The notes below the pieces were generated by a model. The model did no database searches. It was not told the origin of the DNA and saw only the letters and a list, made by a program, of their open reading frames with translations. Shown here one piece after another: positions 281 through 45,444 of a stretch of DNA of 64,000 nt. Every line of letters begins with the position of its first letter. Positions within the stretch are counted from its first letter, which is position 1. This DNA comes from Candidatus Binatia bacterium (GTDB taxonomy: Bacteria > Desulfobacterota > Binatia > UBA9968), in assembly GCA_046757725.1 (NCBI GenBank), contig JBHHYU010000005.1, positions 4,947-68,946 on the forward strand, read 5' to 3'. The translations under genes were made by a program, and so were the position numbers.

Positions 281-1696
281 TCAAACCTTTTTGCGAGAAA
301 CGTTATTGATCCTTGGACCGTAGAAGCTCTCCGCACATTCCATGAGCGTTTCCGATAGGGTAGGATGGGGATGCACCGATTCCGCAAGGTCTTTCGCGGT
401 TGCCCCCATTTCCATGGCAAGAACTCCTTCGCTGATAAGTTCGCCGGATCCGACACCAACAATCCCGACACCAAGAATCCGTTCGGTCTCCGGCTCAATG
501 ATTAGTTTAGTGAGCCCATCCGGCCTGTCCATACTCATTGCTTTTCCCGAGCCGGACCAGGGAAACTTCACGATTCTTATGGAAATGTTTTTCTCCCTAG
601 CCTCCCGCTCAGTTAGGCCACACCACGCCACCTCTGGATCAGTAAAAATCACCGCGGGAATAATGACACGATCAAAGGTGCTCGATTCCCCAGTGATCAC
701 CTCCACGGCAATCTTTGCTTCCTTTGTGGCCTTGTGAGCCAGGAGGGGGCCGCCATTGACATCGCCAATAGAATATATATTGGGATCGGAAGTTTGCTGC
801 TTCGCATTGCATTGGATAAAACCATTCTCGTCTTTCGTCACTCTCGTGTTCTCAAGCCCCATGTCGCTGTCGTTAGGAATACGCCCGACGGTAACCAATA
901 CCCAGTCATAAAGCTCCTCCTTTTTTTGATGCTGAACTTGCATGGTAACTTTGATCTGTTTTTTGCTCGTTGCCATCTTTAACACTTTCGTGCGCAAGCG
1001 TACTTCCTGAAAAGCCTTTTTCGTGTATCGTACTACAGGCCGAACCAGATCTGCATCCACTTCCGGCAATAGGCTATCCATGGTTTCAGCCAATATGACA
1101 TGGCTTCCAAGAGTAGCGTAAACGGTCCCCAATTCGAGGCCGATATATCCACCCCCTACGACGAAGAGATTTTTAGGAATCTCCTCCAGTTCGAGGGCCT
1201 CGGTGGACGTCATGATTCGTCGGTTTCCCAGATCGAACGCGGCCGGCATGGCGGGCTTCGTCCCCACGGCGATGATTGCCTTTTCATAGGCGATAAATTT
1301 TTGACCTTGCGGCGTTTCCACTCGCAGAAGACGGGAGTCCTCGAAATGACCCTTGCCGTGCAGTACGGTGATACCGTGTTTGTGGCCCAGCCCGATAAGG
1401 CCCTGGGCGAGCCTTTCGATAATGGATTCCTTCCACGCACGCAGTTTGTCAAGGCTAATCTTGGGTTTGCCGAAAACGATTCCCCTGGTACCGGACTCGG
1501 TAACCTCAGTAATGAGACGCGTGGCGTGGAGAAGCGCCTTGGACGGAATGCAGCCACGATTGAGGCAGACCCCGCCGAGGCGAGGCGACTGTTCCACCAG
1601 AATGACCTTCTTACCTCTGTCGGCGGCGTAAAAAGCAGCTGTATAACCACCCGGCCCCGCACCGACAACCACGAGATCTGTTTTAATGGTTTCCAT
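281..1696 (-). CDS. lpdA: Dihydrolipoyl dehydrogenase (E3 component of 2-oxoacid dehydrogenase complex)
   Basis: 471 aa. N-terminal FAD-binding GxGxxG (VVGAGPGGYTAA) and redox-active disulfide motif GGVCLNRGCIPSK. Lies downstream of the E1 and E2 genes on the same strand. Confidence 0.9.
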   Translation of the reverse strand: METIKTDLVVVGAGPGGYTAAFYAADRGKKVILVEQSPRLGGVCLNRGCIPSKALLHATRLITEVTESGTRGIVFGKPKISLDKLRAWKESIIERLAQGLIGLGHKHGITVLHGKGHFEDSRLLRVETPQGQKFIAYEKAIIAVGTKPAMPAAFDLGNRRIMTSTEALELEEIPKNLFVVGGGYIGLELGTVYATLGSHVILAETMDSLLPEVDADLVRPVVRYTKKAFQEVRLRTKVLKMATSKKQIKVTMQVQHQKKEELYDWVLVTVGRIPNDSDMGLENTRVTKDENGFIQCNAKQQTSDPNIYSIGDVNGGPLLAHKATKEAKIAVEVITGESSTFDRVIIPAVIFTDPEVAWCGLTEREAREKNISIRIVKFPWSGSGKAMSMDRPDGLTKLIIEPETERILGVGIVGVGSGELISEGVLAMEMGATAKDLAESVHPHPTLSETLMECAESFYGPRINNVSRKKV

Positions 1697-1717
1697 AGGC
1701 TTCAGCGTTGCAATACC

Positions 1718-2980
1718 TTAACCGGTAAGCTCTGCTTCATTGAAATGTTCTAAAGCGTAGACGATCTCGCGGATAAAGCGGACTGCATTGGCTCCATCGA
1801 TCACTCGATGGTCGTAGGAAAGGCTTAGAGGCAGCATCGTGCGTACCGCTGTCTGCTGATTTATACTCACAACCTTTGACATTCCCCGTCCCAAACCTAG
1901 CACGGCCACCTGAGGTTTATAAATAATCGGAGTAAAATAAGTGCTCCCTATGGTCCCCTGATTGGAAATGGTAAAAGAGCCTCCCAGGAGTTCCTCGAGA
2001 GACACTTTTCTCCGCCTCGTTTTCTCCGTCAACTCGGACAGTTCTTTAGAGAGTTTCAGCATGTCTTTTTTATCCACGTCCTTGATCACCGGAACAATGA
2101 GACCCGCCTCAGTATCCACAGCGATGCATACGTGATAATAGTCCTTGTAGACGATCTCCCCTGTAACGTCATCCAAACTTGAATTAAAAACCGGGTGCTT
2201 TTTAAGAGCCTGAATTACCGCCTTTAAGACAAAAGAGGTAAGAGTCAGGTGGACGCGCTTTTTCTTATACAACGGAGCTTGCCTCTTTCTCATTGCCAAA
2301 ACGGATGTGATATCCGCTTCATCAAATTGAGTTATATGAGGAATGGTGGCCCAGGATTCGACCATCCTCTTACCGACGGTCCGTCTTAGAGACGTTATCG
2401 GTTCCCTGCGGACCGGCCCCCACTTCGAAAAATCGATGCCTTCAGCCGTTGAAGGGGACTGGAGTTCCCTTGTCGGAACGATTCGCTGAGAGGCCAATTG
2501 CTGTAAATGCTCGATGTAAGACTTCAAGTCGCGAAGGACGATTCTTCCTCCCCGCTCACTCCCTTTGACTCTGGTCAAATCAATGCCCAATTCTCTTGCG
2601 GTTTTTCTTATGGAAGGAGAGGCCGGAGGTCCAAGTCCGCTGGGGGATTTAGTTTCCTGCTGCGGCACGGCACTTTCTTCACCATCTGTCGTTTCCTCAG
2701 TCGGATCGACTCTATCTTCCGGTTTCTCAGCGATATCGTCGTTTGTGTTTTTCGGCGCCACAGAAATCAGTGCTTGACCTACTGTGATGGCATCGCCCTC
2801 TTTAACGTATATCCGGGTCACTTTACCCGATAACGTCGAAGGAATGGGGGCGATCGCCTTTTCATTCTCCAGCTCCAGGATGGTCTGATCCACCGCAATT
2901 TCATCACCCTCACTCACGAGGATGTTAACTACCGTAGCGGAGTCAGCACCTTCACCCAGGCGCGGGAGTTTAATATCCAT
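1718..2980 (-). CDS. aceF: Dihydrolipoamide acetyltransferase (E2 component)
   Basis: 420 aa. N-terminal lipoyl domain (LPRLGEG...ELENEKA with the lipoyl-lysine context), Ala/Pro-rich linker, peripheral subunit-binding domain, and C-terminal catalytic domain with the DHRVIDGA motif. Confidence 0.85.
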   Translation of the reverse strand: MDIKLPRLGEGADSATVVNILVSEGDEIAVDQTILELENEKAIAPIPSTLSGKVTRIYVKEGDAITVGQALISVAPKNTNDDIAEKPEDRVDPTEETTDGEESAVPQQETKSPSGLGPPASPSIRKTARELGIDLTRVKGSERGGRIVLRDLKSYIEHLQQLASQRIVPTRELQSPSTAEGIDFSKWGPVRREPITSLRRTVGKRMVESWATIPHITQFDEADITSVLAMRKRQAPLYKKKRVHLTLTSFVLKAVIQALKKHPVFNSSLDDVTGEIVYKDYYHVCIAVDTEAGLIVPVIKDVDKKDMLKLSKELSELTEKTRRRKVSLEELLGGSFTISNQGTIGSTYFTPIIYKPQVAVLGLGRGMSKVVSINQQTAVRTMLPLSLSYDHRVIDGANAVRFIREIVYALEHFNEAELTG

Positions 2981-3013
2981 GACCTTAGGGCTTCAAATTT
3001 CTAAGCAGGGTGT

Positions 3014-5647
3014 CTAAATGGAAAAAGGATAGAGTTTTTCCGGATCGAACTTAAGGTCACTGATGGCCTTCTCCACCACCTGCGCCTCCAGACTGCCTCG
3101 CTCGGATAGCGCATAGAGAGTTGCAATAACAGTTGTTTCAGCGTCCACTTCGAAAAAACGTCGGAGACGATGCCGAGTATCGCTTCTGCCGAATCCATCG
3201 GTTCCAAGGGTGATAAGGCCACCTGGAACCCAGGGGGCGATCTGGTCCGGAACCAGCCTTACATAGTCCGATATGGCTACAAAAGGGCCCTTCTCATTCT
3301 CAAGGAGACCCTCCAAGTATGATTTCTTAGCCGGCGATGTCGGATGCAGCATGTTCCATCTTCTGGCCCGCAATGCGTCATTCCTCAACAATTTGTAACT
3401 TGTTGCGCTCCATACATCAGCAGAAACGTCATATTTTGCCGCCAATATGTCTTGGGCCTTCAGGGCTTCATTTAAAAGCGGACCGCTTCCTAATATATGG
3501 GTTTTGTAAGGTTTCTTTGCTTGGCCTTTCCGGAACTTATAAAGGCCTTTAAGAATTCCTTGCTCTACCCCTTCCGGCATCTCGGGCATCAGGTGATTCT
3601 CATTATAGAGTGTTAAATAGTAAAATACCTCTTCTCCCTTCTCATACATTCGCCGCATCCCGTCCTGGATGATTACAGCGATTTCATAGGCAAAGGCCGG
3701 ATCATAAGTGAATAGGGTAGGAATCATACTCGCGAGAATCTGACTGTGGCCGTCTTGGTGTTGTAACCCCTCACCGTTGAGGGTGCTTCGTCCGGCAGTA
3801 GCGCCCAACAGAAACCCCTTGGCTCTAGTATCACCAGCAGCCCACATGAGATCGCCGATTCTTTGAAAACTAAACATGGAGTAGAAGATATAGAACGGAA
3901 TTGTAGGAAATCCGTAGGTAACGTCGCTGCTGCCCGCGGCTATGAAAGAAGACATGGCACCAGCCTCGGTTATTCCCTCTTCGAGAATCTGACCGTCTTG
4001 GGCCTCCTGGTAGTACAGGAGAGTTCCACGGTCGACGGGATCGTAGAGTTGCCCCTTGGGTGAATAGATTCCAATTTCGCGAAAAAGACCATCCATACCG
4101 AAGGTCCTCGCCTCATCGGGAATAATGGGGACGATTCGTTTTCCGATCCGTTTGTCACGCAAGAGCTTACTCAGAATACGGACAAATGCCATCGTCGTGG
4201 ATATCGAAAGGTCCTTAGAAGCTCTAAGAAATTCTCCATAAAACTCAAGCGAAGGAACGGAAATAGGTCCGGTTTTATGCTTGCGCTGAGGCAGAAATCC
4301 GCCCAGATGTCTTCTGCGTTCCAGGAGGTATTTTGTTTCAGGACTGGACAGAGCCGGACGGTAAAAGGGTGCTTCCACCACCTCTTCATCTGATAAAGGA
4401 ACGCCGAACCGGGAACGAAATTCTCTTAACTCCTTTTCATTGAGGAGTTTCTGCTGGTGAGTGATATTTCTTCCTTCCCCTGCTTCGCCCAATCCATAAC
4501 CCTTTATGGTCTTGGCCAAGATGACCGTTGGGGAACCTTTGTGCTCTACACCGGCTCGGTAAGCCGCATAGATTTTCTGTGGATCGTGCCCTCCCCGAAG
4601 AAGTTTATGGATCTGGTTGTCGGTCAGATGATTGACCAGCCCCAAAAGTTCCGGATATTTGCCGAAGAAGTGTTTTCTTGTGTAGCTTCCTGGTTCCACG
4701 GAATATTTTTGATAATCTCCGTCCACCGCCTCTTCCATACGCTTGACCAAAAGTCCTTTGTCATCGGCTTTGAGAAGGGGATCCCAATCGGAACCCCATA
4801 TCAGTTTGATAACGTTCCAACCTGCGCCACGAAAAAGGGCTTCGAGCTCCTGTATGATTTTCCCATTTCCCCTGACTGGTCCATCCAAACGTTGCAGATT
4901 GCAGTTAACGACCCAGATTAGGTTGTCGAGATTTTCCCGTGATGCCAGTGTCAAGGCCCCCGAAGCCTCCGGTTCATCCATCTCACCATCGCCCACGAAA
5001 CACCATATTTTTGGTTCTTCTCCGGTCAGAAACCCCCGGCCTCGTAAGTACCTGCTGAAACGTGCCTGGTAAATCGACATGATCGGGGCAAGACCCATAC
5101 AAACACTAGGAAACTGCCAGAAATCCGGCATCAGAAAAGGATGTGGATAGGAGGGCAGCCCTCCGCCCTTAGCAAATTCTTGGCGGAAATTATGCAGATA
5201 TTTAGCATCTAACCTCCACTCCAGATACGCTCTGGCGTAGATGCCTGGAGAGGCATGCCCTTGAAAGAAAATGATGTCTGCGGGAGTGTTCCCGTCTCCG
5301 CCCCTAAAAAAATGATTGAACCCGACTTCGTAAAGGGTTGCACAAGACGCATAGGTAGAGATATGCCCACCGATTCCGTGGTGAATCCGGTTAGCCTTGA
5401 CTACCATAGCCATTGCGTTCCAGCGGACATAACTCTTGATACGCCTCTCAACCTGACGCTCCCCTGGATAGATAGGTTCTCTTTCAGGTGGAATCGTATT
5501 GATATAGGGAGTGGTAAGGGGGAGCGGTATATGCATCCCCGCCTCACGTAACTTTGAAATGAGCTTGTTTAAAAGGCCGGGGGCTTGCTCGGAAAGGGCA
5601 TCCTTATCCGTAAAAACAGCCGGTTGCGCCTTCTCTTCTAATTCCAC
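3014..5647 (-). CDS. aceE: Pyruvate dehydrogenase E1 component, homodimeric AceE type
   Basis: 877 aa, the length of homodimeric E1. Thiamine-diphosphate-enzyme-like sequence. Immediately upstream of the E2 and E3 genes on the same strand. Confidence 0.85.
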   Translation of the reverse strand: MELEEKAQPAVFTDKDALSEQAPGLLNKLISKLREAGMHIPLPLTTPYINTIPPEREPIYPGERQVERRIKSYVRWNAMAMVVKANRIHHGIGGHISTYASCATLYEVGFNHFFRGGDGNTPADIIFFQGHASPGIYARAYLEWRLDAKYLHNFRQEFAKGGGLPSYPHPFLMPDFWQFPSVCMGLAPIMSIYQARFSRYLRGRGFLTGEEPKIWCFVGDGEMDEPEASGALTLASRENLDNLIWVVNCNLQRLDGPVRGNGKIIQELEALFRGAGWNVIKLIWGSDWDPLLKADDKGLLVKRMEEAVDGDYQKYSVEPGSYTRKHFFGKYPELLGLVNHLTDNQIHKLLRGGHDPQKIYAAYRAGVEHKGSPTVILAKTIKGYGLGEAGEGRNITHQQKLLNEKELREFRSRFGVPLSDEEVVEAPFYRPALSSPETKYLLERRRHLGGFLPQRKHKTGPISVPSLEFYGEFLRASKDLSISTTMAFVRILSKLLRDKRIGKRIVPIIPDEARTFGMDGLFREIGIYSPKGQLYDPVDRGTLLYYQEAQDGQILEEGITEAGAMSSFIAAGSSDVTYGFPTIPFYIFYSMFSFQRIGDLMWAAGDTRAKGFLLGATAGRSTLNGEGLQHQDGHSQILASMIPTLFTYDPAFAYEIAVIIQDGMRRMYEKGEEVFYYLTLYNENHLMPEMPEGVEQGILKGLYKFRKGQAKKPYKTHILGSGPLLNEALKAQDILAAKYDVSADVWSATSYKLLRNDALRARRWNMLHPTSPAKKSYLEGLLENEKGPFVAISDYVRLVPDQIAPWVPGGLITLGTDGFGRSDTRHRLRRFFEVDAETTVIATLYALSERGSLEAQVVEKAISDLKFDPEKLYPFSI

Positions 5648-5739
5648 GTCTCTATCTCCTACCCAATTCGAGATTTAAAGTTGAAGGAATGTGGTTTAAC
5701 TCGTTTCCAGGAGTTTAGTATAATAGCTTCTGCGCCAAC

Positions 5740-6456
5740 ATGGAATACATTGATCTAACCCTGCCTAGGCCGGAGCAAAATCTAGCATGCGATGAGGCTC
5801 TAACTGATATGTGTGAAGCGGGATACGGCCGCGAGATTTTGAGATTTTGGGAGCCCCGTGAATACTTTGTGGTTGTAGGATATTCAAATAAAACGGCTTT
5901 GGAGGTTAACCTGCTATCCTGTAGGAAACGGCGTATTCCCATATTTAGGCGGCGTTCTGGAGGCGGGACCATATTGCAGGGTCCCGGATGCCTGAACTAT
6001 TCATTGGTTTTAAAAATCCAAGACTCGTCACCTATGAATAACATTTCAGGAACAACCGCCCACATTATGAAATGTCATAGGAAAGCTATACAAGAGATTA
6101 TAGGGTCTAAGGTTGAAATTCAAGGCGTCAGCGATCTCACCTTAGGGATGTTAAAATTTTCGGGAAATGCCCAATACCGGAAAAGACGAGTTTTATTGTT
6201 TCACGGTACTTTTCTGCTTCATTTCAACATTCCACTTATGGAAAAGATACTCCAACTACCCTCAAAACGACCCCTTTATCGTTTTGACCGCTGTCACGAA
6301 GAATTTCTCGTTAATTTGAATCTGCCCTCTCAGAAAGTTAAGGAGGGCCTTCGAAAGGCATGGCATGCTACCAAAGCCCTACAACACATTCCCCGCGAAA
6401 GAATAGATGGCACGGTAAAAATGTACTCCACCGAACAATGGAGAGTTAAAACCTAG
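5740..6456 (+). CDS. Lipoate-protein ligase / octanoyltransferase family protein (LplA/LipB/LipM-like)
   Basis: 238 aa. RRSGGGTILQGPG and KFSGNAQ motifs resemble the BPL/LplA/LipB catalytic core. Divergently transcribed from the pyruvate dehydrogenase operon, which fits a role lipoylating E2. Confidence 0.55.
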   Translation: MEYIDLTLPRPEQNLACDEALTDMCEAGYGREILRFWEPREYFVVVGYSNKTALEVNLLSCRKRRIPIFRRRSGGGTILQGPGCLNYSLVLKIQDSSPMNNISGTTAHIMKCHRKAIQEIIGSKVEIQGVSDLTLGMLKFSGNAQYRKRRVLLFHGTFLLHFNIPLMEKILQLPSKRPLYRFDRCHEEFLVNLNLPSQKVKEGLRKAWHATKALQHIPRERIDGTVKMYSTEQWRVKT

Positions 6457-6697: not shown

Positions 6698-7426
6698 TCA
6701 GATTACAGTTTCGCAGCTGACATCGATCGTATTCGTGGGACCGCCACCCTGACAGACATCGGTTCCAGCGCCGCCGCTAATCGTGTCATCATCGAGGCCG
6801 CCTCCAATCGTGTCGGCTCCATCGCCCCCGTTAATGATGTCTTGTCCGCGACCGCCGCTAAGCACGTCGTCACCAGGCCCACCCCTGATCGTGTCGTCTC
6901 CAGTAGCTCCATGAATTGCGTCATCTTCGTCCCCGCCCCTAAGGTCATCGCCGCCTGGCCCGCCGTCTATCATGTCGTCACCTAGCCCACCCCTAATCGT
7001 GTCGGGACCTCTGTCGCCAGTGATTCTATCGTTACCTGATCCTCCTCTTATCGTGTCACCGTCGCTGCCACCGAAGATCCTATCGTTGCCTGCATTGCCG
7101 CTAATCGTGTCAGGGCCGTCGCCACCAAAGATTCTGTCGTTGCCTGATCCTCCCTGGATCTCGTCGGCTCCACTGTTCCCGAAGATTTCGTCCCGGCCGG
7201 AGCCGCCACAAATTATGTCGTCGCCACCACGCCCGATTATCGTATCATTACCACCAAAGCCATGGATCACGTCAGCTCCGCTTGTACCTATGAGAACGTC
7301 AGGACCAGGAGTCCCCGGGATGGTTACGGCTGCGCCTTGGCATAGCGGCTGCCCATATGCCGGGTAAGATGAAGCCATAAACAAGCCGATCACAATTGCT
7401 ACCAAAACCGTAAAATTTTTCATCGG
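6698..7426 (-). CDS. Secreted RTX-type (hemolysin-type) calcium-binding repeat protein
   Basis: The product has a Sec-type signal peptide (MKNFTVLVAIVIGLFMASSYPAYG) followed by about 20 tandem GGxGxDxUx nonapeptide repeats (GGSGNDRIFGGDGPDTISGNAGNDRIFGG...). The start was moved from the track's 7474 to the internal ATG at 7426, which is preceded by an AAGGAGG ribosome-binding site. Confidence 0.7.
   Translation of the reverse strand, partial: PMKNFTVLVAIVIGLFMASSYPAYGQPLCQGAAVTIPGTPGPDVLIGTSGADVIHGFGGNDTIIGRGGDDIICGGSGRDEIFGNSGADEIQGGSGNDRIFGGDGPDTISGNAGNDRIFGGSDGDTIRGGSGNDRITGDRGPDTIRGGLGDDMIDGGPGGDDLRGGDEDDAIHGATGDDTIRGGPGDDVLSGGRGQDIINGGDGADTIGGGLDDDTISGGAGTDVCQGGGPTNTIDVSCETVI
6740..7295. 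repeat. Intragenic tandem 27-bp (nonapeptide) repeat array encoding RTX calcium-binding repeats
   Basis: Recurring ...aatcgtgtc... / ...gatcgtgtc... units. The antisense frame gives a Pro/Ser-rich artefact ORF (6972..7367), which is typical of repetitive DNA. Confidence 0.6.
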
Positions 7427-7929
7427 CGATACCTCCTTTAAATTTAGTCCCTTCAACCCAGTCCATACTCTCATTTAAAAAACAGCACAGCCTTACGAAC
7501 TAACTCAAAGAGTGCCCAGCTCCAATCTGCCCTTTTACCCCTCCCAGAAACATCTCCGTCCCTCATCTTAAGTCTCAAATCATAGTAAAACCCAATCAAA
7601 GCTCGGGACGGCCGCTCCCTGTCGGAATCTACCAGGCTATATTCCGCGTCAGAATGCTTGACAGGGGAGAGCTACGATATCCTAACAAGAAAACTTTAGC
7701 GTTGGGAATTTAAGGGAAGTTAATGGAACTATTTGGCGTAGATGTGTAGGGAGTCTACCATAGGATTTTGGGTCCTGACGGAGGCGTGGGTCTCGGGGCA
7801 AGGGGACGAAGGGACTGGGGGTGTATATCCTAGGTATCTTTGCTTATATAACGTTGTTGACTAGCTTGAATTACTTCTAGATGTTTTTCTGAAACAGAAA
7901 CGACGGCCTGTTGTGGACCCTGTTTCTTA

Positions 7930-9978
7930 CTACTTGCTTTCGTCCGCAAGCCGCTTTTGTGCTTCCTCATTAGAGATGGATTCCAACTCAGCCAACATGC
8001 GAGCCAGCTCTTCGTCCCCGGCCTTCTTCGCCATGTTCTCCGTAATGATCAAAGCCATGCCTGCAACTGTGGGAGACTCGAAGAGGGATTTTATGGGCAA
8101 TTCTACTTTGAATGTTTTGATTACTCGCGAGATGACCTGGGTGGCGTTGAGGGAGTGACCTCCTAGATCGAAAAAATTGTCATAGATGCCCACTTGATCG
8201 AGACCCAAAACCTCGGCCCAGACACCCGCCACCGTCACCTCAACCGGAGTGTGGGGCGCTACGAAGGTCCCGTTCAGATTCGGTCTGCTTCGACCGAGGG
8301 TGGGCAACGCGCGGCGGTCCACCTTGCCGTTGGGAGTCAGCGGCATCCTTTTTAAATTAACGAAGGCGGTGGGTATCATGTAGTCGGGAAGTCTACCTTT
8401 TAGGTAACGGCGCAGCTCTTCGGTAGATGGACCAAAGCTGTTCCGCAAGACCAGATAGGCCACCAAGCATGGGTCACCCTGCCCGTCTTCCCGACTCGTA
8501 ACGATGGCCTCATTGATTCCAGGGATATCGAGCAGCGCCAACTCGATCTCTGCAACTTCGATGCGGAAACCTCTAACTTTTACTTGGAAGTCTCTTCGCC
8601 CGAGATGCTCAAGGCTGCCGTCCGGACGCATGCGGCCCAAGTCTCCTGTGAGATAAATTCGCTGGGCTTCACTGCCGGGGTCGCATGGAAATCTGGTCTG
8701 AGTTAAGTGGGGATTTTGCCAGTAGCCCGGCGAAAGATAGTCACTGCTCACCGCAATTTCACCCGCATGACCGACGCCGATCTCTTCCCGGCTCTCACCG
8801 AGCAACAGGATCTTCTTGTCTTGCACCGGGTATCCTGTCGGAACAACGGTTCCGGTGATCTGCGATTGCTTATCGAGGAAGTACTGACGGATCCATCCGG
8901 TCTCAGTGGATCCCATCCCTGTGTAAAGAATGCTAGTTGCCGAGAAATACTTCTTGTATAACTCTACGTCTTTTATGAGAACCCTCTCACCTCCAAATCG
9001 ACATAGGCGAAGCCTGGGAAACTTTTCTTTTCCAGTCAGGCCGGCAACGAAACTGCGGAAGACCGTGGGGACCGAAATGTAAAACGTGATCTCTTCGCGA
9101 ATAAGGAAGTCTGCCAAGTTCGCCAAACCCTCGTGTTTAATATCGAACGGATACACGGCTGCCCCGTTGAGTAAAGGGCCGAAAATACCTCTCACGGAAC
9201 CGTTGACGCTGTAAGAGTAGAATAGGGTCATCCGGTCGTCCGGACAGATGCGGAGAGTGTTCGTATACAGCATGACCTCATGAAGCACGTTGCGGTGGTT
9301 TTGGACAACGCCCTTTGGCTGTCCCGTTGAACCGGATGTGTACAGAATATACGCTAGCGGGTCCGACGATAGTGACAAGTCCAGATTCTTTGCGGACAAA
9401 CTCGTAGTGACTCGGTCAATGTTAATCAGTGAAACCGGACCCTGAACCAACCGTTTGGCCAAGGAAAGATTTTTGGTGTTGGTGACTATCAGCCCGGCCT
9501 GTGAATCTTTGAGAATGTAGGCGGTTCTTGAAAGGGGATACAAGGGATCCAGGGGCACGTACATTTTACGTGCTTTCAAAGCACCGAGAATTGCACCAAT
9601 CATTGGTGCGTTGTGTTCAAAAAGCAGAGCAACTTGCTTGTGTCGTTCGCCGCATTGGCCGACGATGGCTCGCGCCACGCGATTGGCAGCTTTATTCAGT
9701 TCATCGTATGTAAACTGGTGGGTCCCGGTCTTGACGGCAAGGCGATTAGGATACTTCCGCACCATTTGCTCGAAGCGGTCCGGGATCGATTGCTCGATCT
9801 CATCCCTCTTGAACTCAATAAACTTTCCTGTCGGGTGGAAACATTTGTCTCGGATAGCTTGCTGCTCCGGTGGAAGATCAGAAATTGCAGTGGAAATATT
9901 GGTCATATGCTGCTGGCGGATCTCATCGCATACACCTTCTAATACTGGGATAATATTAATCCAATCATGTTCTTCCAT
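7930..9978 (-). CDS. Stand-alone NRPS-type adenylation-thiolation (A-T/PCP) didomain protein
   Basis: 682 aa. Adenylation core motifs are present: A3 LAYILYTSGSTGQPKGV, A5-like GMGSTE, A7 YLTGDLGR, A8 GRRDFQVKVRGFRIEVAEIE, A10 PLTPNGKVDR. The carrier-protein motif is DNFFDLGGHSLNATQV. No condensation or thioesterase domain is present. Confidence 0.75.
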   Translation of the reverse strand: MEEHDWINIIPVLEGVCDEIRQQHMTNISTAISDLPPEQQAIRDKCFHPTGKFIEFKRDEIEQSIPDRFEQMVRKYPNRLAVKTGTHQFTYDELNKAANRVARAIVGQCGERHKQVALLFEHNAPMIGAILGALKARKMYVPLDPLYPLSRTAYILKDSQAGLIVTNTKNLSLAKRLVQGPVSLINIDRVTTSLSAKNLDLSLSSDPLAYILYTSGSTGQPKGVVQNHRNVLHEVMLYTNTLRICPDDRMTLFYSYSVNGSVRGIFGPLLNGAAVYPFDIKHEGLANLADFLIREEITFYISVPTVFRSFVAGLTGKEKFPRLRLCRFGGERVLIKDVELYKKYFSATSILYTGMGSTETGWIRQYFLDKQSQITGTVVPTGYPVQDKKILLLGESREEIGVGHAGEIAVSSDYLSPGYWQNPHLTQTRFPCDPGSEAQRIYLTGDLGRMRPDGSLEHLGRRDFQVKVRGFRIEVAEIELALLDIPGINEAIVTSREDGQGDPCLVAYLVLRNSFGPSTEELRRYLKGRLPDYMIPTAFVNLKRMPLTPNGKVDRRALPTLGRSRPNLNGTFVAPHTPVEVTVAGVWAEVLGLDQVGIYDNFFDLGGHSLNATQVISRVIKTFKVELPIKSLFESPTVAGMALIITENMAKKAGDEELARMLAELESISNEEAQKRLADESK

Positions 9979-10085: not shown

Positions 10086-10655
10086 TCAGCACTTCCGGCA
10101 GACGAGATCTCCCTTTGGAAATGGCAAGAGTACACAGTCTACTCGGGTATCGCTTCGCGCACGGTTCAGGAGATCCGTCACCACGCGGGGCGAAGTCATG
10201 TTATCGATAACCAGCCATCCACCGGGCACGAGGTGCGGAACAATCTTCTCGTAGGTCTTGGCGTTGAGCTCCGGGGGCTCGATATCGGAGAAGCAAAACG
10301 CGATCTCCTCAAAACGGTCCGCGTAGTCGAGAGCGTTGCCGTGAACGACTTGGACCGAACCTTCCGCTCCGGCGCGGGAGATGTTCTTTCGAGCAAAGGC
10401 GACCTTATTTTCATCGAGATCGATCGTAGTGAGCGTAACCCCTTTCGCGCGGGCAGCCAGGGACAGCCACAGACTAGAGTATCCGCCGCTGGTTCCCAGC
10501 TCGAGGAATGCGCCGTGTGGGGCTGACATCGCCAGGAGCGAAAGGCAGCGCCCGAGGTCTATAGGAACCGAGCGAAGTGACCGATGATCCTGTGCCGTCT
10601 GTTCCTCTAGCGCTCGCATCACCTGGTGCATGTTAGCGGAAATGTCATGAAACAC
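10086..10655 (-). CDS. Class I SAM-dependent O-methyltransferase (family 3, caffeoyl-CoA/catechol OMT-like)
   Basis: 189 aa. SAM-binding motif LELGTSGGYSSLWL and acidic motif VIDNMT. The start overlaps the stop of the upstream 465-aa gene by 11 nt. Confidence 0.7.
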   Translation of the reverse strand: MFHDISANMHQVMRALEEQTAQDHRSLRSVPIDLGRCLSLLAMSAPHGAFLELGTSGGYSSLWLSLAARAKGVTLTTIDLDENKVAFARKNISRAGAEGSVQVVHGNALDYADRFEEIAFCFSDIEPPELNAKTYEKIVPHLVPGGWLVIDNMTSPRVVTDLLNRARSDTRVDCVLLPFPKGDLVCRKC

Positions 10656-12042
10656 TTGAGCCTCCCTCGAGCTTCTCGAACGGCACGCTGCGCCGATTGA
10701 TCTGATCTTCGATATCGTCCGGATATAGATTCTCGTTCAGCAAAACATAGTCGCCGTAAGTGCCGTGAACGGGACCAAGCAAGCGACGCTCCGCAAGTAG
10801 CCCAGGCCTTCTCTTTCCAAATTGTGGCAAGTTCGACCGATATTTTTGGTAGCACTCGTACCAATTGCGCATGAGCTGCACGTAAAAGTCCAATGGAACC
10901 GGAGGCTGCTCGGCCTCCTTGCACAGAGCCGTGGACGGCTCCCGCCGCCACTGTTGAGGACGCGGAAGAATCCCGCGTGACATCAGGTATTCGAAGCCGG
11001 CGCTCGTTGATTTGACCGCCTCTGCCACGGATTGATACCCGTGGGGCCGCGCCATTTCAACACCAGAGACGAAGCTCGGCTGCATGCCCCCCTTGCCGAA
11101 AACATCCTGCGCCTCGCACATCCATCGCACCCAGTTGTCCCAACCGATACGTTGAGCTTTTCCAGGATTGATCCATTCGAAGAGACGTTTATCCCACACC
11201 TCCATGTTGAGGTGTATACTGTCGACACCGGCGGCTTTGTACCATTCCATCTCTTCCCTCGGCCGCGCATTGACCTCGAATGTAATCTTTGGCTTCGCCG
11301 CGCTCTCCTTGATGGCGCGTATGTACTCCCCGTAGAATTCCGATTCGGTTTTCCCGTGCAGCGTCTTAGTGATGGTTCCGCCGCTAAGCAAGAAGCCGTG
11401 CGGACCTGCGTCAACCTTGCGGGCATCGCTCGCGACCGCCTCGACTACTTGCACGACATCTTTCACGGATTTTACTGGAGCGGTCAGAGTGAAGTCCCGC
11501 GACAACTTCATCTGACGAGCGTTCTGGTTAATGTCACAGAACTTACACTCCTCGTGAGCCCCCCAGTATTGGCAATTCCTAAAGATCGTAATGAATGTTC
11601 CGAATGCCACAATTTCATGATAAGGCGTGCCATCAGGCAAACACTTCGCATAATAGTCGGGTATTTTCGGGTATCGGATATCGGCCAGAACGCGCCCTTC
11701 CGCTGTCAGTACGAGTCGGCCATCGACCACATCGATGAGGTAAGGAGAATGAGGGGAAAGAGAAGTCTGAATCCCCACGGGACGTAGGGCGTATGGTCCA
11801 TTAAGTAGAACGAAGTGCTCGGGAACGCGCCGATGTTCTCCCCTCTTGAGGTCGGCCATCGGTACGAGATCATAAGAGAACAATCGGTATGACTTGACCA
11901 GCGCACCAGCTGTGGCTCGGAGCGCGGCGTCGCTAAACCAATGACCCAGGCTCAGGAGATGTTGTTTGAGAATAGTCTCCTTGGGAACCTCGGGGTATTT
12001 CTGGAAATAAGATTCCAGGACTTCGGCATTAGGTTCGTTCAT
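10645..12042 (-). CDS. Putative radical-SAM-like enzyme with non-canonical C-x8-C-x2-C cysteine triad
   Basis: 465 aa. Cysteine triad CQYWGAHEECKFC, then a glycine-rich FLLSGGT stretch and an HLNMEV segment consistent with a radical-SAM TIM-barrel core. It also has N-terminal (about 165 aa) and C-terminal (about 120 aa) regions of unknown function. It is not the canonical CxxxCxxC motif. Confidence 0.4.
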   Translation of the reverse strand: MNEPNAEVLESYFQKYPEVPKETILKQHLLSLGHWFSDAALRATAGALVKSYRLFSYDLVPMADLKRGEHRRVPEHFVLLNGPYALRPVGIQTSLSPHSPYLIDVVDGRLVLTAEGRVLADIRYPKIPDYYAKCLPDGTPYHEIVAFGTFITIFRNCQYWGAHEECKFCDINQNARQMKLSRDFTLTAPVKSVKDVVQVVEAVASDARKVDAGPHGFLLSGGTITKTLHGKTESEFYGEYIRAIKESAAKPKITFEVNARPREEMEWYKAAGVDSIHLNMEVWDKRLFEWINPGKAQRIGWDNWVRWMCEAQDVFGKGGMQPSFVSGVEMARPHGYQSVAEAVKSTSAGFEYLMSRGILPRPQQWRREPSTALCKEAEQPPVPLDFYVQLMRNWYECYQKYRSNLPQFGKRRPGLLAERRLLGPVHGTYGDYVLLNENLYPDDIEDQINRRSVPFEKLEGGSSVS

Positions 12043-12462: not shown

Positions 12463-13644
12463 CTATTTCGAATGATGCGACTGCTCGTAATGCTGGCGCA
12501 GGAGGTCCTTACCGTAGTCGTTGCCATTTGGGGTGCGAACCACTAGGTGGATGTGATCCTTGTAAGGCTTCTGATATTGGGGGAATGCGATACCCCGCTC
12601 GTGGTCGAACTCAATGATAATCGTCGGACTATGGACGCGGTAGTAGAACACACTGTCTTCTTCCATCTCGCCCATCCAGGCAAAGTAAGTTTCCCGCAGA
12701 TGCCGCTTCACCTCCTCCATCTTGACTTGGGCATGAGCCGGTCGGATACGACCGACGTGGAGTTCAATCAGACGGAGCAAAAGGTCGTGTTGAGAACTTG
12801 AGAGACTTTCGTAGGGGATTCCCTCGTACCGGAGCTCAAAGTTGTCGCGAAAGGCCGTGGTGAATAGACCGCGCGGCAGATCGAGAGAGAGGACAGCCTT
12901 GTTACGTTGCTCCGCGGAAAGCGCACGGATAACCGTCAGTCCCTGCTCCTCTTCAGCTTTAAACACCCGCGTGCCGCCGTACTTGCCGCCCTGGGCAAAG
13001 ACCGGCTCCGACCCCAGAAAGGTTGGGGTCATGATAATCTGGTCTCCGAGGATAAAGGTGTTGATGTTGAGATGATGGCCGTCGATCTGCCAACCCCACG
13101 GCTCAGCGGCGGAGGGTTTCCCCATAATGCTGAGCCAGTAAAGGTCCTCACCGTACTCATCGTGCTTACCCGTCATCTCCATTACTGTTTCATTGAGACG
13201 CATGACATCCCGAGCGGTCTCAAATCCCTGAGTGCTCAAACATTCTCTCAGGAGCGCAAAAGCTCCGTCACGCTGGGCATCGTTCATCTCAAATAACGGC
13301 ATCCCGTGCCGCATCAGCAGCCGATGGATATTACTCCATTTGCGCCACTCATCGGTGTCAATCGGAAATAGGGCCTTGGCACGCTGCTCCGGGTTCAGAG
13401 TTCCCAGGAAGTTTTCAGCACCTTCTCTGATGGACTGCGTGGACACACCTGTTTTCTGGATAGGGAAGAGACCCGGAATCACCGTTCCATCGGTAGTAAT
13501 CCCTTTATAAGGTTGCGCCACCGCCTCTAGCGCGTGTTTGACGTAATCAGGAGGGCCACCGCCAACTTTCAATGCCCGCTTAGTCTGTGCCGGGGAGGCT
13601 TCTGCAAGGGATGCGTTACCCGAACCTGGATTACTGTCAACCAT
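12463..13644 (-). CDS. DUF3500 family protein
   Basis: 393 aa. The C-terminal region (YFAWMGE...YYRVHSPTIIIEFDHE...HIHLVVRTPNGNDYG) matches what I recall of the DUF3500 family signature. No signal peptide. Confidence 0.5.
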   Translation of the reverse strand: MVDSNPGSGNASLAEASPAQTKRALKVGGGPPDYVKHALEAVAQPYKGITTDGTVIPGLFPIQKTGVSTQSIREGAENFLGTLNPEQRAKALFPIDTDEWRKWSNIHRLLMRHGMPLFEMNDAQRDGAFALLRECLSTQGFETARDVMRLNETVMEMTGKHDEYGEDLYWLSIMGKPSAAEPWGWQIDGHHLNINTFILGDQIIMTPTFLGSEPVFAQGGKYGGTRVFKAEEEQGLTVIRALSAEQRNKAVLSLDLPRGLFTTAFRDNFELRYEGIPYESLSSSQHDLLLRLIELHVGRIRPAHAQVKMEEVKRHLRETYFAWMGEMEEDSVFYYRVHSPTIIIEFDHERGIAFPQYQKPYKDHIHLVVRTPNGNDYGKDLLRQHYEQSHHSK

Positions 13645-39839: not shown

Positions 39840-41510
39840 TCATTGACGGGTGATAACAATGTCGACATTGTGAGACCCTATCTTCACTGGATTATCTTTG
39901 GCTTCCCCCCGTAGATTTCCCGGTTCCTTAGTCATTGCGTTGCCGTCTTTATCCAGCAGCGCCGACACGCGTACTTTGGCGGGAAAGGACTGGCCCGGCA
40001 TGATGATGTCTTTTGAACTCAGGGAATAAACAGATGGAAAGACTGGCTGGTTGATTTTCTTTACGGCCAGAGGAGGGCCTCCTGCGGAATCGGACGAACG
40101 TGCGATGATAAAGAGAACGCCCCGACCTAGCATGTTTGGCTTGAGCTTAGGATCCAGAGACACGGTTCCCCGTATACCGGCTGTGGGCAGCGGAACCTGA
40201 GCAGGTTGTGAGCCCGTTTTTTTACCGGCAACTAGTTTGTTTAGTTCTGCAATCGTATTCTGTATTTCCTCTTTTTGTGCCCCGGCTGGGAGCAGGTTTA
40301 CAAGTCTGTTCAATGCCTCACGGGCCCCCACGTAGTCTTTTTTTGCATGATAAAGAACTAGGCCTTTTCCTAAAAGGGCAAGCGGATAATTAGGGGTGGT
40401 CAGGAGGGCCCGATTGAACGCCAAGAGAGCACCATCGGAATGTCCGGCTTGAGTCAGAATCAATCCCATGTACGTATGCGCCTCAGGTTGATTTGGATCT
40501 ATCTCGAGGGCACGCTTGAAGGTCGTAATGGCTGCCCGGAGGTCATGTCGCTCAAATGCAGCTCGACCCTGAGAAAGGAGATTCGGAAGATCTTTCGATG
40601 CGACTCCTCCCGTTCCTGGCTTGCCCCTGAGCCCTCCTGCGTCAGTACCCGTGAGAAAGTCGCCGGTGACGGAATCCTGTTGGGATAACCGGGGCCGGAG
40701 GGATCTGGTTAAAAGCACACCAATAGTGACCCCGAAAACCAAAAGAAATATGCCTCCCGCGGCAAGCCTCCAGCCCCTTTGGGAGACCTTCCCCTTTTCC
40801 AAAGTCTGCTTCGTTGCCTGACCCTGCTTGCTTTCGGTTGTCGCAGTCCGTGCGATAGGGTGAGGAGAGGCAGACAAATCGATCTCTCTTAGGACCATCG
40901 CGGCCTGAGCTTCAAGGCTTTGCCGCGACTCTCTGTAGTCCGCCTCAGAAAGTTTTCCCGTCTGGTAGTCGAACTCGAGTTCCCTGAGATTCGCGTAGAG
41001 CCTATTCCGTTCCAGCTGGAGAGGTGGGGGGAGGCTTTGCGCCTGTAAATCTGAACTAATATTCTCTTTCTCTGCCGCTTCGCGGCGTACGCGGTCAATA
41101 AGAGCTGGGTCCACGGTTTTTGGTTGGTGCTTATCTGTTTTACGTACCGAGCGTCTTAAAAGCAAAACTGCAATGAGAAATCCGACAGCTAAGGCGAAAA
41201 AGGGCAGTACCCACACCAACAGATTGAAACCCCTTCTTGGCGGGGCAAGGAGGACCCAGTCTCCGTATTTTGAGACAAAATAGGCTTTCACCTGGTCCGG
41301 TTCCTTACCTTCTTTGAGCTGTTTACGAATCACCGCTCGCATCTCCTGGGCCAACTCGGAGGGCGAGTCGGCAACGGAGAGGTTTTGACATACCGGACAC
41401 CGCAGGACAGCGCCTATTTGCTGCGCCTGCTCTTCCAGATCCGGCGGCTGTGCCAGGAGAGCCGGTGAAGGGGTCAATAGCAGAATTAGAACCAGTAGGG
41501 TGCGCCACAT
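39840..41510 (-). CDS. ccmH: Cytochrome c-type biogenesis protein CcmH fused to a TPR-containing CcmI-like domain
   Basis: N-terminal LRCPVCQNLS CcmH motif and a transmembrane segment, followed by a TPR-rich periplasmic domain. Confidence 0.7.
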   Translation of the reverse strand: MWRTLLVLILLLTPSPALLAQPPDLEEQAQQIGAVLRCPVCQNLSVADSPSELAQEMRAVIRKQLKEGKEPDQVKAYFVSKYGDWVLLAPPRRGFNLLVWVLPFFALAVGFLIAVLLLRRSVRKTDKHQPKTVDPALIDRVRREAAEKENISSDLQAQSLPPPLQLERNRLYANLRELEFDYQTGKLSEADYRESRQSLEAQAAMVLREIDLSASPHPIARTATTESKQGQATKQTLEKGKVSQRGWRLAAGGIFLLVFGVTIGVLLTRSLRPRLSQQDSVTGDFLTGTDAGGLRGKPGTGGVASKDLPNLLSQGRAAFERHDLRAAITTFKRALEIDPNQPEAHTYMGLILTQAGHSDGALLAFNRALLTTPNYPLALLGKGLVLYHAKKDYVGAREALNRLVNLLPAGAQKEEIQNTIAELNKLVAGKKTGSQPAQVPLPTAGIRGTVSLDPKLKPNMLGRGVLFIIARSSDSAGGPPLAVKKINQPVFPSVYSLSSKDIIMPGQSFPAKVRVSALLDKDGNAMTKEPGNLRGEAKDNPVKIGSHNVDIVITRQ

Positions 41511-41516
41511 AACAGG

Positions 41517-42083
41517 TTACCGGATGGACTGATACTCTCCTTTTCCTTCCTGTGCACTCACCACCCTGTTTTGAGCTTCATTCACTTTGGCGGTTAAAAG
41601 GGATGTTTCAATCGACCCCGCATGTTTGTACGTGATTCGCCCTTCAGGGTCGATAAAAAAGCTTTCCGGGATTCCCCAGACGCCATAATCAATCGCGATC
41701 TTTCCCGAGGCATCCCGGCCATTCGGATAAGTGATATTAAATTCGCGAATAAAAGCTCGGCCATTCTTTTCTGTGTCCTGGATTTCGATCCCCAGAAAGA
41801 CGATATCTTCATCCTTAAGTTTCTGCCATGCCGTTTCGAGATCTCTTGCCTCGGCCCTGCACGGGGGGCACCAGGAAGACCAAAAATTAAGAAAGACTAC
41901 CTTCCCTCGCAAATCCTCGAGACGCAGTTTCTTACCGTCGAAAAGTGCCAGAGTAAAAGGCGCAGCCTGTCGTCCAATCAATGGGGATGGAATGTATCGG
42001 GGGTCACGATTAAAGCCATAGGCGAGTATCCCAATAAGGGGAAGAATGATGCCTAAGGTAACGATCAGGCGCCGCCAAGGCAT
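41517..42083 (-). CDS. ccmG: Thiol:disulfide interchange protein CcmG/DsbE
   Basis: Thioredoxin fold with a WCPPC active site (WSSWCPPCRAE) and an N-terminal membrane anchor. Confidence 0.8.
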   Translation of the reverse strand: MPWRRLIVTLGIILPLIGILAYGFNRDPRYIPSPLIGRQAAPFTLALFDGKKLRLEDLRGKVVFLNFWSSWCPPCRAEARDLETAWQKLKDEDIVFLGIEIQDTEKNGRAFIREFNITYPNGRDASGKIAIDYGVWGIPESFFIDPEGRITYKHAGSIETSLLTAKVNEAQNRVVSAQEGKGEYQSIR

Positions 42084-42084
42084 C

Positions 42085-44046
42085 TCAACCCTCCCTCCGC
42101 ACCATTTGCCGGGCAGGCCAGATAGAAACGATAGTGCCGAAAACTATAACGATCCCGCCGATCCACATCCAGGCTAAAAGCGGTCGCACAAGAACCTTCA
42201 ACGTGGCTTGGTTCTGCTCAAGTTCGCTAAAACCTGAAAGGATAACGTAGAGGTCATGGCTGAAACTACTGCGGTGAACCGCCCGCCCGACCGGAGATTG
42301 CCGGTTGGGGAAAAACTTCAGGGCAGGGGAAAGGACTCCCAATTCATGCCCACTGTTGAAGACGCGAAAAACCCCTTCCACACGGAAGTGGGTGGCGCGC
42401 TGGGATCCCTTCAACCCTTCAAATTCGAGCCGATAGGGTTTTATTGAAATGCTATCTCCCCGTTGGAGCGTAGCTTCACGCTCTACACTATAACTCATGG
42501 ATCCGGTAATACCCATGATGATCAAGACCACGCCAAGGTGGACGACCAGGCCACCGTACCGGCGCTGGTTGCGTCGAACCAACGTTCTCAGCGCTGAAAA
42601 AACGCCCTCTCCAGCAAGTCTGTGCCGGGTTCGAACGGCGAGCGCCGTATCGAATAGAATCGTAAAGATCACAAAGGCCGAAAGCGTGAAACCAAGAAGT
42701 GGGAAGAAATCCCTCACCGACATCGCAATAAGGACCATAGCCGTAAACAGGGAAGCGGTCGCAGGCCACAGGAAATTTCGCCTGAGGTTGTCCCAGGAGG
42801 CCTTTCTCCAGGCAATCATGGGGCCGACACCCATAAGAAAGACCAAAAGAAGAAAAAGAGGGGCAACCACGGAGTTAAAATAGGGGGCTCCTACGCTTAC
42901 CTGAGAACCAGTCACCGCTTCGGAGATCAGAGGAAAGATAGTCCCCAAGAAGATCGTAAAAAGAGCGGAAACCAAAACAACATTGTTGAGGAGAAACGTC
43001 GATTCGCGGCTGACCATCGAATCTAATTCCGGCTGACCTTTGAGTTTATCTGCCCGAAATGCCAGCAGGCCAAAAGAGCCGAGAAGAACAAAACCAAGAA
43101 ATGAAAGAAATATCACCCCGACGGGTCCGGAGGAAAAAGCATGGATCGAGGAAAGGACACCGGAACGAGTGAGAAAGGTGCCGAAAATCGTCAGGCTAAA
43201 GGCGATGATGATCAAAGAAAGGTTCCAGACCTTAAGCATACGTCGCCGCTCTTGGACTTGAATGGAGTGAAGAAAGGCGGTGGCCGGGAGCCAAGGCATG
43301 AAGGCTGCATTTTCAACGGGGTCCCAGGCCCAGTATCCACCCCACCCCAGGACATGGTACGACCACCACGCCCCCACCAGGTTGCCCATCGTCAAAAAAA
43401 ACCAGGCGATAATCGTCCAGCGGCGGGTTGTAACGATCCACGCCTCGTCCAGTTTCCCCTTGATGAGGGCGGCCATGGCGAAGGCGTAGGGAACCGTCAG
43501 GGCAACGAAGCCGGTATAGAGCAGTGGTGGATGAGTTAGCATGTTCGCGTCTTCTAAAAGTGGATTGAGCCCCTGACCGTCAGCAGGGACGGGAAAAACA
43601 CTCTCAAAAGGATTCGATGCAAATGCGATCACAGAAAGGAAAAAAGCGGAAACGATGGAGAAGATCATCAAGACCCACGGCATCGTTTCCGTGTGCCGGT
43701 CCTTATAAATCCACGCCAGCAGGGCAGAGAAGATAATAAGGATCCACTCCCATAGAAGCACCGAACCCTCAAGAGCTCCCCATAGGCCGGTTACACGGTA
43801 GTAGACGGGGGTGGATCGGGTCGTATTAAAAACCACGTACTTTATGGAAAAGTCCGTGGTCACAAGGGCATAAATCAAGCAGGCGGCGGCGGTAGTGACC
43901 AGCGCAAATTGACCGAGGATAGCAGCTCGGGTGCCGACAAGAAATCCGTGCTTTCCAGTACGAGCTCCCAGTATTGGGGAAAGAATCCCCCACACGGCTA
44001 AGAAGATTGCCACGACGATGCTGGCATGGCCAACTGTTGCGGTCAT
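42085..44046 (-). CDS. ccmF: Cytochrome c-type biogenesis protein CcmF (heme lyase)
   Basis: 653-aa polytopic membrane protein with a WGGYWAWDPVEN WWD domain. Confidence 0.85.
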   Translation of the reverse strand: MTATVGHASIVVAIFLAVWGILSPILGARTGKHGFLVGTRAAILGQFALVTTAAACLIYALVTTDFSIKYVVFNTTRSTPVYYRVTGLWGALEGSVLLWEWILIIFSALLAWIYKDRHTETMPWVLMIFSIVSAFFLSVIAFASNPFESVFPVPADGQGLNPLLEDANMLTHPPLLYTGFVALTVPYAFAMAALIKGKLDEAWIVTTRRWTIIAWFFLTMGNLVGAWWSYHVLGWGGYWAWDPVENAAFMPWLPATAFLHSIQVQERRRMLKVWNLSLIIIAFSLTIFGTFLTRSGVLSSIHAFSSGPVGVIFLSFLGFVLLGSFGLLAFRADKLKGQPELDSMVSRESTFLLNNVVLVSALFTIFLGTIFPLISEAVTGSQVSVGAPYFNSVVAPLFLLLVFLMGVGPMIAWRKASWDNLRRNFLWPATASLFTAMVLIAMSVRDFFPLLGFTLSAFVIFTILFDTALAVRTRHRLAGEGVFSALRTLVRRNQRRYGGLVVHLGVVLIIMGITGSMSYSVEREATLQRGDSISIKPYRLEFEGLKGSQRATHFRVEGVFRVFNSGHELGVLSPALKFFPNRQSPVGRAVHRSSFSHDLYVILSGFSELEQNQATLKVLVRPLLAWMWIGGIVIVFGTIVSIWPARQMVRREG

Positions 44047-44051
44047 CCTTT

Positions 44052-44486: not shown

Positions 44487-44603
44487 TGTGACCTTCGAGA
44501 TGTTTGGACCGCTTCCTTGTGATCAAATAAATAAACTATCATCGCTGAACACTCGTTTCTACTACCTTTTAGGTTCGCACCGGGCCCCATGCCGCAAGTG
44601 CGG

Positions 44604-44738
44604 TCATTCCGACGGACGACTGCGAAAAAGCTCTTCTTCCGCCTTCCTAAGGCGGCGTTTGAGCATGAAAAGATAGAGTAGAAGTGCACACCAAACAATC
44701 CCGTAGGCCAGGAAAACAAACCCCCAAGCTTCCATTAT
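44604..44738 (-). CDS. ccmD: Heme exporter protein CcmD (small single-transmembrane protein)
   Basis: The 44-aa product MEAWGFVFLAYGIVWCALLLYLFMLKRRLRKAEEELF... has its ATG overlapping the ccmC stop. It is the internal-start portion of track ORF 44604..44885. Confidence 0.45.
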   Translation of the reverse strand: MMEAWGFVFLAYGIVWCALLLYLFMLKRRLRKAEEELFRSRPSE

Positions 44739-45442: not shown

Positions 45443-45444
45443 AT

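Follow-up and report, generated by a model that had tools for sequence, protein, structure and literature searches.

A variant radical SAM protein with a probable extended cluster-binding loop, translationally coupled to an O-methyltransferase, in a Candidatus Binatia genome

Does a protein whose only conserved cysteines are spaced C-x8-C-x2-C belong to the radical S-adenosylmethionine (SAM) superfamily, or does it use three cysteines in some different way? The question is raised by a gene at positions 10645-12042 (minus strand) of a 64,000-nucleotide stretch of DNA from a Candidatus Binatia bacterium (contig JBHHYU010000005.1, assembly GCA_046757725.1), referred to below as the window. The open reading frame encodes 465 amino acids and falls within the NF045502 family of variant radical SAM proteins. 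An original prediction, made from the sequence, had described the product as radical-SAM-like and had left open whether it is an unusual member of the superfamily or a new fold. The analysis presented here indicates that it probably works as a radical SAM enzyme whose cluster loop is extended, and that the family to which it belongs, as an ordinary member, is already catalogued though biochemically unstudied. What makes it noteworthy is not the motif but its chemistry, an N-terminal domain with no match in the PDB, and its conserved partner genes.

The cysteines lie in the putative cluster-binding loop CQYWGAHEECKFC, encoded by the codons at positions 11536-11574 (minus strand), whose translation gives the spacing C157-x8-C166-x2-C169. 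The first gap thus departs from the canonical CX3CX2C spacing, whereas the second (CX2C) and the aromatic F168 ahead of the third cysteine are canonical. Conservation was assessed in a narrow alignment (A1) of 22 homologues at 52-86% identity and in a broad alignment (A3) of 62 relatives reaching down to 21% identity. All three cysteines are invariant in both (22/22 and 62/62), so the triad is real, and the possibility that it is not kept among homologues can be set aside. The remaining four of the seven cysteines in the protein (C134, C309, C374 and C397) are each cysteine in at most 7 of the 22 narrow and 5 of the 62 broad sequences. Because C157, C166 and C169 make up three of just 11 invariant columns in the broad alignment, the pattern is not a product of chance. 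The residue before the third cysteine is always F or Y in the family; G222, K295, G327 and E329 are invariant, and G221 is nearly so.

The spacing itself is not rigid across the family. A first gap of eight residues is found in 114 of 114 close full-length homologues. Among 77 distant full-length cluster representatives it occurs in 66, with nine residues in three, seven in two, and six, 14 or 15 in one each, the other three showing no match. The CxxC half stays constant while the first gap differs, which is what would be expected for a loop insertion.

The structural context was provided by an AlphaFold2 model built on the narrow alignment, with a mean predicted local distance difference test (pLDDT) score of 84.8 and a predicted template modelling (pTM) score of 0.87. 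Residues ~150-400 (positions 10843-11595, minus strand) are predicted to form the radical SAM (beta/alpha)6 core, a partial TIM barrel. Its six beta-alpha units have strands at residues 150-152, 216-220, 252-257, 275-280, 320-326 and 361-364. The cysteine loop lies between beta-1 (150-152) and alpha-1 (171-181), and the C-terminal region from 400 to 465 is helical. Searched with Foldseek against the PDB, the model gave 61 matches at E<=1e-3. All 50 that were listed are radical SAM enzymes, including MiaB, HydE, ThiH, LipA, BioB, PylB, HydG, NosL, HemN and viperin. The notion of a new fold using three cysteines differently thus finds no support. The top matches to the core (HydE, PylB, ThiH, HydG and NosL, E 1e-6 to 1e-4) are radical SAM enzymes that act on small molecules or amino acids and belong to the same megacluster. 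They differ from the protein studied here in that they share just 12-15% identity with it, carry canonical motifs and lack the N-terminal domain, and some have C-terminal auxiliary clusters.

At the level of sequence, the closest solved relative is biotin synthase. The profile of the broad alignment matched the BioB entries 8vdw_A (E 1.3e-7), 8vcw_A (2.5e-5) and 1r30_A (6.7e-3), and an hhalign comparison with E. coli BioB, using a sequence 100% identical to 1r30, gave a probability of 87% and an E value of 4e-6. In both comparisons the E-E-C-K-F-C of the family aligns with E-D/N-C-K-Y/F-C of BioB, and beta-2 and beta-3 align as well. C166 and C169 fall on C57 and C60 of the E. coli enzyme and therefore correspond to the canonical second and third cysteines. 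At the site of BioB's first cysteine, four residues ahead of C166, the family has Ala or Pro. As read from this alignment, the first ligand would be C157, displaced by another 5 residues towards the N-terminus on a lengthened loop, and the C-x8 spacing would be a loop expansion and not a new way of using cysteines. BioB differs in its CX3CX2C spacing, in possessing auxiliary-cluster ligands and in lacking the 150-residue N-terminal domain.

Loops of this kind have precedents. In the solved structure of QueE (CX14CX2C) the cluster site is canonical and a single loop is extended, and HmdB carries CX5CX2C (PMC4389238). QueE and HmdB/HcgA have likewise lengthened the gap between the first and second cysteines and kept the CxxC half. 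They belong to unrelated subfamilies, with other cores (beta6/alpha3 in QueE) and other substrates.

Conserved residues also occupy the positions where further motifs of the superfamily would be expected. The glycine-rich LSGG stretch and the HLNMEV segment pointed out originally are both present, with G222 invariant and E281 a glutamate in 60 of 62 relatives. The segment SGGTI (positions 11371-11385, minus strand) ends beta-2 with G221 and G222 and occupies, by translation, conservation and the BioB beta-2 alignment, the position of the 'GGE'-type motif, so that it may take part in binding the SAM amino group. On beta-4, NMEVWD (11191-11208, minus strand) has highly conserved W283 and D284 next to E281, and the family pattern N-x-E-V-W-D aligns in both comparisons with H-N-L-D-T of BioB. 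A third element, G327-V-E329 (11056-11064, minus strand), stands on beta-5 outside the stretch that aligns with BioB. Its conservation and its place at strand 320-326 would make it the GxIxGxxE-type motif. All three elements lie on the expected strands, and the first two align to BioB. Within the superfamily, the protein would belong to the biotin-synthase/HydE/ThiH-like part.

Profile searches lead to the same superfamily. The protein passes the NCBIfam model NF045502 ('variant_rSAM') with 176.2 bits (E 9e-52; cut-off 125), as do 10 of 10 diverse relatives that were checked. The match takes in profile positions 7-357 of 357 and residues 25-400 of the protein, so that the profile spans both the N-terminal region and the core. 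The protein is a member of this family with no structural difference, but the model is a domain-level one without an assigned function. The subfamily discussed here is set apart by a coupled O-methyltransferase. A homologue search returned 393 sequences at E<=1e-3, the best 86% identical, and close homologues in GenBank metagenome-assembled genomes are already named 'radical SAM protein'. Membership of NF045502 also means that the homologues do not belong to a known non-radical family. Together with the (beta/alpha)6 core model and the Foldseek matches, it upholds the radical-SAM assignment. The weaker profile matches include LipS2 (NCBIfam, E 0.003) and TIGR04043, the MSMEG_0568 family, which reaches 59.4 bits (E 3e-16) against a cut-off of 303.7. 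The latter is the radical SAM protein of the Nit1C nitrilase/cyanide-assimilation cluster, and its similarity to the present protein extends over residues 80-324, taking in part of the N-terminal beta region. Membership of that system was rejected, as the score is far under the cut-off and the neighbourhood is wrong. The Nit1C neighbours, a nitrilase, a GNAT protein, an AIR-synthase-like protein and a flavoprotein, were seen neither in the window nor as recurrent neighbours across 85 loci.

Several observations weigh against the enzyme assignment. The Pfam model PF04055, proposed originally as a check, matches residues 165-293 with 26.7 bits (E 7.1e-6) and stays just under its gathering score of 29.5, so that of the profile checks the curated family was passed but the general one was not. 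At its gathering threshold PF04055 misses this protein; a precomputed match to it is carried by many homologues that are 75-86% identical. The pLDDT over the cysteine loop is moderate, at ~77. The TM-scores to solved radical SAM enzymes are just 0.36-0.39 of the query length, because the core alone aligns. Among PDB sequences, no radical SAM match was obtained with the single sequence or the narrow profile. No functional study of any family member was found in the literature on the family, on the motif spacing or on Binatia radical SAM proteins, and the family has no solved structure.

A separate question is how rare such a protein is. The original prediction had counted known deviations from CX3CX2C as few, a view that does not hold. 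RadicalSAM.org lists CX8CX2C in Megaclusters 4-6-1, -3, -5 and -6 and CX9CX2C in 4-6-4, all within Megacluster-4, the biotin/thiazole-synthase group (PMC9477430). These clusters share with the present family the spacing, including the minor x9 variant, and the affinity to BioB and ThiH, and the family probably corresponds to the Megacluster-4-6 groupings. With these clusters and the NCBI 'variant_rSAM' model already on record, the motif is in itself no novelty. When 1.84 billion cluster representatives (50% identity) were searched with the family profile, 1,182 matched at E<=1e-3, 169 of them also at E<=1e-30, which puts the size of the family at 1,182 clusters or more. A one-genome-per-species scan found relatives in 456 stretches, mostly from Candidatus Binatia or 'Deltaproteobacteria' metagenome-assembled genomes, which often encode two or three paralogues each. 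The value of the family lies in this size, in the several paralogues per Binatia genome, and in conserved partner genes that offer a concrete starting point for assigning the reaction.

The first unusual part is the N-terminal domain, which had been put at 165 residues. The extension exists but covers ~150 residues up to strand beta-1 (residues 1-150; positions 11593-12042, minus strand). According to the AlphaFold2 models and the NF045502 profile, it consists of three helices followed by a seven-strand beta region and is family-specific. A model of the isolated domain has a pLDDT of 78, and Foldseek returned nothing significant for it in the PDB (best E 0.86, TM <0.2). As far as the predicted structures go, a ~150-residue domain without a structural match in the PDB is newly seen here. 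Among the most conserved segments of the subfamily is the invariant KSYRLFSYD stretch (residues 50-58; positions 11866-11895, minus strand, taking in residues 50-59). Its pLDDT is low in both AlphaFold models, 51-54, and the stretch could be a flexible loop that contacts the substrate or acts as a lid. The domain as a whole would serve in substrate binding or as a lid.

The second unusual feature is the gene that follows. A family-3 (cation-dependent) O-methyltransferase of 189 amino acids is encoded at positions 10086-10655 (minus strand), matching PF01596 (2.4e-15) and PF13578 (1.9e-13). Its best PDB sequence matches, 8c9v, 7cvu, 8c9s and 5lhm, are bacterial cation-dependent O-methyltransferases, and the D...DN motif is kept. 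The GTG start overlaps the stop of the radical SAM gene by 11 nt, and a GGAGG Shine-Dalgarno sequence, read from the sequence 5 nt upstream of the GTG, lies inside the radical SAM coding region (10661-10665, minus strand). Orthologous loci were defined as 45 non-redundant loci with a radical SAM protein at least 74% identical. In 39 of them the methyltransferase is on the same strand and abuts or overlaps the radical SAM gene. Contig ends truncate four of the other six loci, and in the last two the methyltransferase is detected by tblastn. Translational coupling of the two genes is thus conserved in all orthologues with enough sequence, and it is newly seen here.

Such strict coupling raises the question of whether the two proteins form a single enzyme. 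In CC-1065 biosynthesis the cyclopropanase reportedly consists of the HemN-like C10P and the methyltransferase-like C10Q. By analogy, the methyltransferase-fold partner would process a SAM-substrate adduct instead of just O-methylating a hydroxyl. The 11-nt overlap with its internal Shine-Dalgarno sequence and the conservation of the coupling even in distant relatives from other phyla are in keeping with this arrangement, as is the shortness of the partner (189 residues, where family-3 O-methyltransferases typically have 203-248). However, like ordinary catechol-type O-methyltransferases, the partner still has the D...DN metal motif and a SAM-binding core, and the radical SAM protein is BioB-like, not HemN-like, with no sign of a second SAM site. 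Moreover, in three loci of relatives (L008, L010 and L047) the methyltransferase lies upstream of the radical SAM gene or is separated from it by a Rieske gene, and paralogues do without any methyltransferase. A two-component enzyme is consequently regarded as improbable, even if it is the alternative that survives best, and two separate enzymes acting in one pathway are preferred.

The nature of that pathway can be approached through the neighbourhoods of relatives. A SBP_bac_1/11 solute-binding protein gene lies just upstream of the radical SAM gene, within 140 bp, in most orthologous loci; in five loci a Rieske oxygenase gene comes after that of the methyltransferase. A larger cluster is seen in relatives that share 53-60% identity and belong to Nitrospirota, Planctomycetota, Gammaproteobacteria and Gallionellaceae. 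It comprises the radical SAM gene, the methyltransferase, a Rieske (LigXa_C) oxygenase, an isochorismatase-aldehyde dehydrogenase fusion of ~670-694 residues and a LeuB-like dehydrogenase (L004 5983-12556, L008 7344-14019 and L010 6126-14361; also L047, L052 and L053). Some of these loci add an adenylation-thiolation-thioesterase (A-T-TE) gene, an Asn-synthase-like gene or a HemN-like radical SAM gene. No NCBIfam model names the proteins of this cluster specifically.

Within the window, a nonribosomal peptide synthetase (NRPS)-like adenylation-thiolation (A-T) protein of 682 amino acids is encoded at positions 7930-9978 (minus strand), with AMP-binding, AMP-binding_C and PP-binding domains. 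Its gene begins 107 nt downstream of the methyltransferase on the same strand. It is missing from most orthologous loci and is therefore at most an accessory partner; for the same reason the reading of the radical SAM protein as part of an NRPS pathway built around this gene was rejected. A-T(-TE) genes are also found near relatives in L008, L025, L039, L052 and L054. In amino-acid-activating adenylation domains, Asp235 of the Stachelhaus code binds the alpha-amino group. The A4 motif of the window protein is YSVNGS, with Asn at this position, and the domains beside related radical SAM genes (two in L008, one each in L025, L039, L052 and L054) have N, A, S or G there. Unlinked adenylation domains in L033 and L045 keep FD. 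The replacement points to a carboxylic acid substrate without an alpha-amino group, and the motif suggests that the A-T protein is a loader for a non-amino-acid substrate, e.g., an aryl, keto or hydroxy acid.

As a whole, the neighbouring genes point towards the metabolism of small organic or aromatic acids, and a substrate of this class can be put forward only tentatively. The neighbours on which it rests differ between subfamilies, and in the window the upstream gene encodes a DUF3500 protein and nearby Rieske or isochorismatase genes are missing; both circumstances detract from the proposal. The DUF3500 gene (12463-13644, minus strand; 333 bits), 421 bp upstream of the radical SAM gene, stands where most orthologous loci carry the solute-binding protein.

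A mechanism consistent with these findings can be outlined. The cluster loop between beta-1 and alpha-1 would be 5 residues longer than usual, with C157 moved upstream, and C157, C166 and C169 would hold a [4Fe-4S] cluster whose fourth iron is chelated by SAM. Reduction would cleave SAM to give a 5'-deoxyadenosyl radical, which would abstract hydrogen from a small-molecule acid enclosed by the N-terminal domain and the open face of the (beta/alpha)6 barrel. Both cluster binding and SAM cleavage by the 465-residue protein are thus expected from its motifs and predicted fold. The product, or the substrate, would probably be handed to the coupled Mg-dependent O-methyltransferase, with O-methylation occurring before or after the radical step, in a pathway that would act on a carboxylic acid, possibly an aromatic one. 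On a broader scale, it is conceivable, though rather doubtful, that the methyltransferase-coupled branch of NF045502 carries out an undescribed radical transformation of a small organic or aromatic acid using an N-terminal fold absent from the PDB. The transformation would belong to a pathway of radical SAM, methyltransferase, Rieske, isochorismatase-aldehyde dehydrogenase, LeuB-like and non-amino-acid-loading A-T(-TE) proteins that makes or degrades a metabolite and is widespread in Binatia, Nitrospirota, Planctomycetota and Proteobacteria.

Paralogues provide a different context. A third paralogue group, 53-56% identical and with several members per Binatia genome, has no methyltransferase. 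In 14 loci (L059, L061, L063-L067, L070, L073, L075, L076, L079, L082 and L083) a MmgE/PrpD-family gene lies near the radical SAM paralogue, mostly within ~400 bp downstream, surrounded by TctC, NMT1, Amidohydro_2, CoA-transferase III and thiolase-like genes. The company of PrpD-type dehydratases and of organic-acid transport and catabolism genes is in favor of a different use of the cluster, through the altered loop, as in a Lewis-acid Fe-S hydro-lyase or a Dph2-like cleavage of SAM. The non-canonical spacing, the sub-threshold PF04055 score, the large sequence distance from solved radical SAM enzymes and weak matches of the broad profile to amidohydrolase TIM barrels (E ~0.01) could be read in the same way. 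The CxΦC, GG, acidic beta-4 and beta-5 GxE elements are nevertheless kept at radical-SAM positions, and every significant fold match listed is an enzyme that generates the 5'-deoxyadenosyl radical. In addition, QueE and HmdB/HcgA, with their expanded first gaps, count as radical SAM enzymes (PMC4389238, PMC10100467). A non-radical use of the cluster is accordingly judged unlikely, slightly more so than a two-component enzyme.

The radical SAM reading leaves the type of chemistry to be considered. BioB as the best PDB sequence match, together with LipA and MiaB among the top Foldseek matches, would suit a sulfur-inserting enzyme such as biotin synthase or lipoyl synthase; the LipS2 match adds little. 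Only three cysteines are conserved, however, and hence there are no ligands for a sacrificial [2Fe-2S] or [4Fe-4S] cluster: the alignments show none of the auxiliary-cluster cysteines of BioB or LipA beyond C157, C166 and C169, and no conserved cysteine after residue 169 that could belong to a SPASM/twitch domain. The absence of an auxiliary cluster makes both sulfur insertion and SPASM-type chemistry unlikely, and both were rejected. The window does contain genes for pyruvate dehydrogenase E3 (281-1696), E2 (1718-2980) and E1 (3014-5647), all on the minus strand, and a divergent gene for lipoate-protein ligase (5740-6456). A distance of 4 kb or more and several unrelated genes separate them from the radical SAM gene, and they occur in none of the related loci. 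Sulfur insertion is thus a very improbable reading.

Equally improbable is a structural metal site (e.g., Zn) formed by the triad, or a protein that is a catalytically dead relic. Nothing direct speaks for either, and purifying selection has strongly constrained the cysteines and the putative SAM-binding residues, as seen across 1,182 or more cluster representatives and in the genomes of 456 species, which have several paralogues each.

The nearest relative in the species scan (L012, JAZGDX010000151.1) has 95% identity in the radical SAM protein and 90% in the methyltransferase. It lies on a 3.8-kb contig binned as 'Bacteroidota', which is probably a binning error because all other close relatives come from Binatia or 'Deltaproteobacteria' metagenome-assembled genomes.

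Some further features of the window deserve mention. A plus-strand open reading frame at positions 11032-11787 was rejected as a gene, being the shadow of the conserved minus-strand gene, and promoter and terminator scans gave background levels only. A protein of 258 amino acids that consists mostly of RTX calcium-binding nonapeptide repeats (PF00353, 6 stretches) is encoded at positions 6698-7474, downstream of the A-T gene and likewise on the minus strand. The pyruvate dehydrogenase complex and lipoate-protein ligase genes (281-6456) represent an ordinary housekeeping context. Farther away, an AT-skew peak at 42-46 kb, within positions 39840-46826, reaches 0.28 at 42-44 kb; no tandem repeats were found. 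The peak coincides with minus-strand genes for CcmH, CcmF, a CcmC-like protein and CcmB, and it results from the membrane-protein codon composition of these ccm genes.

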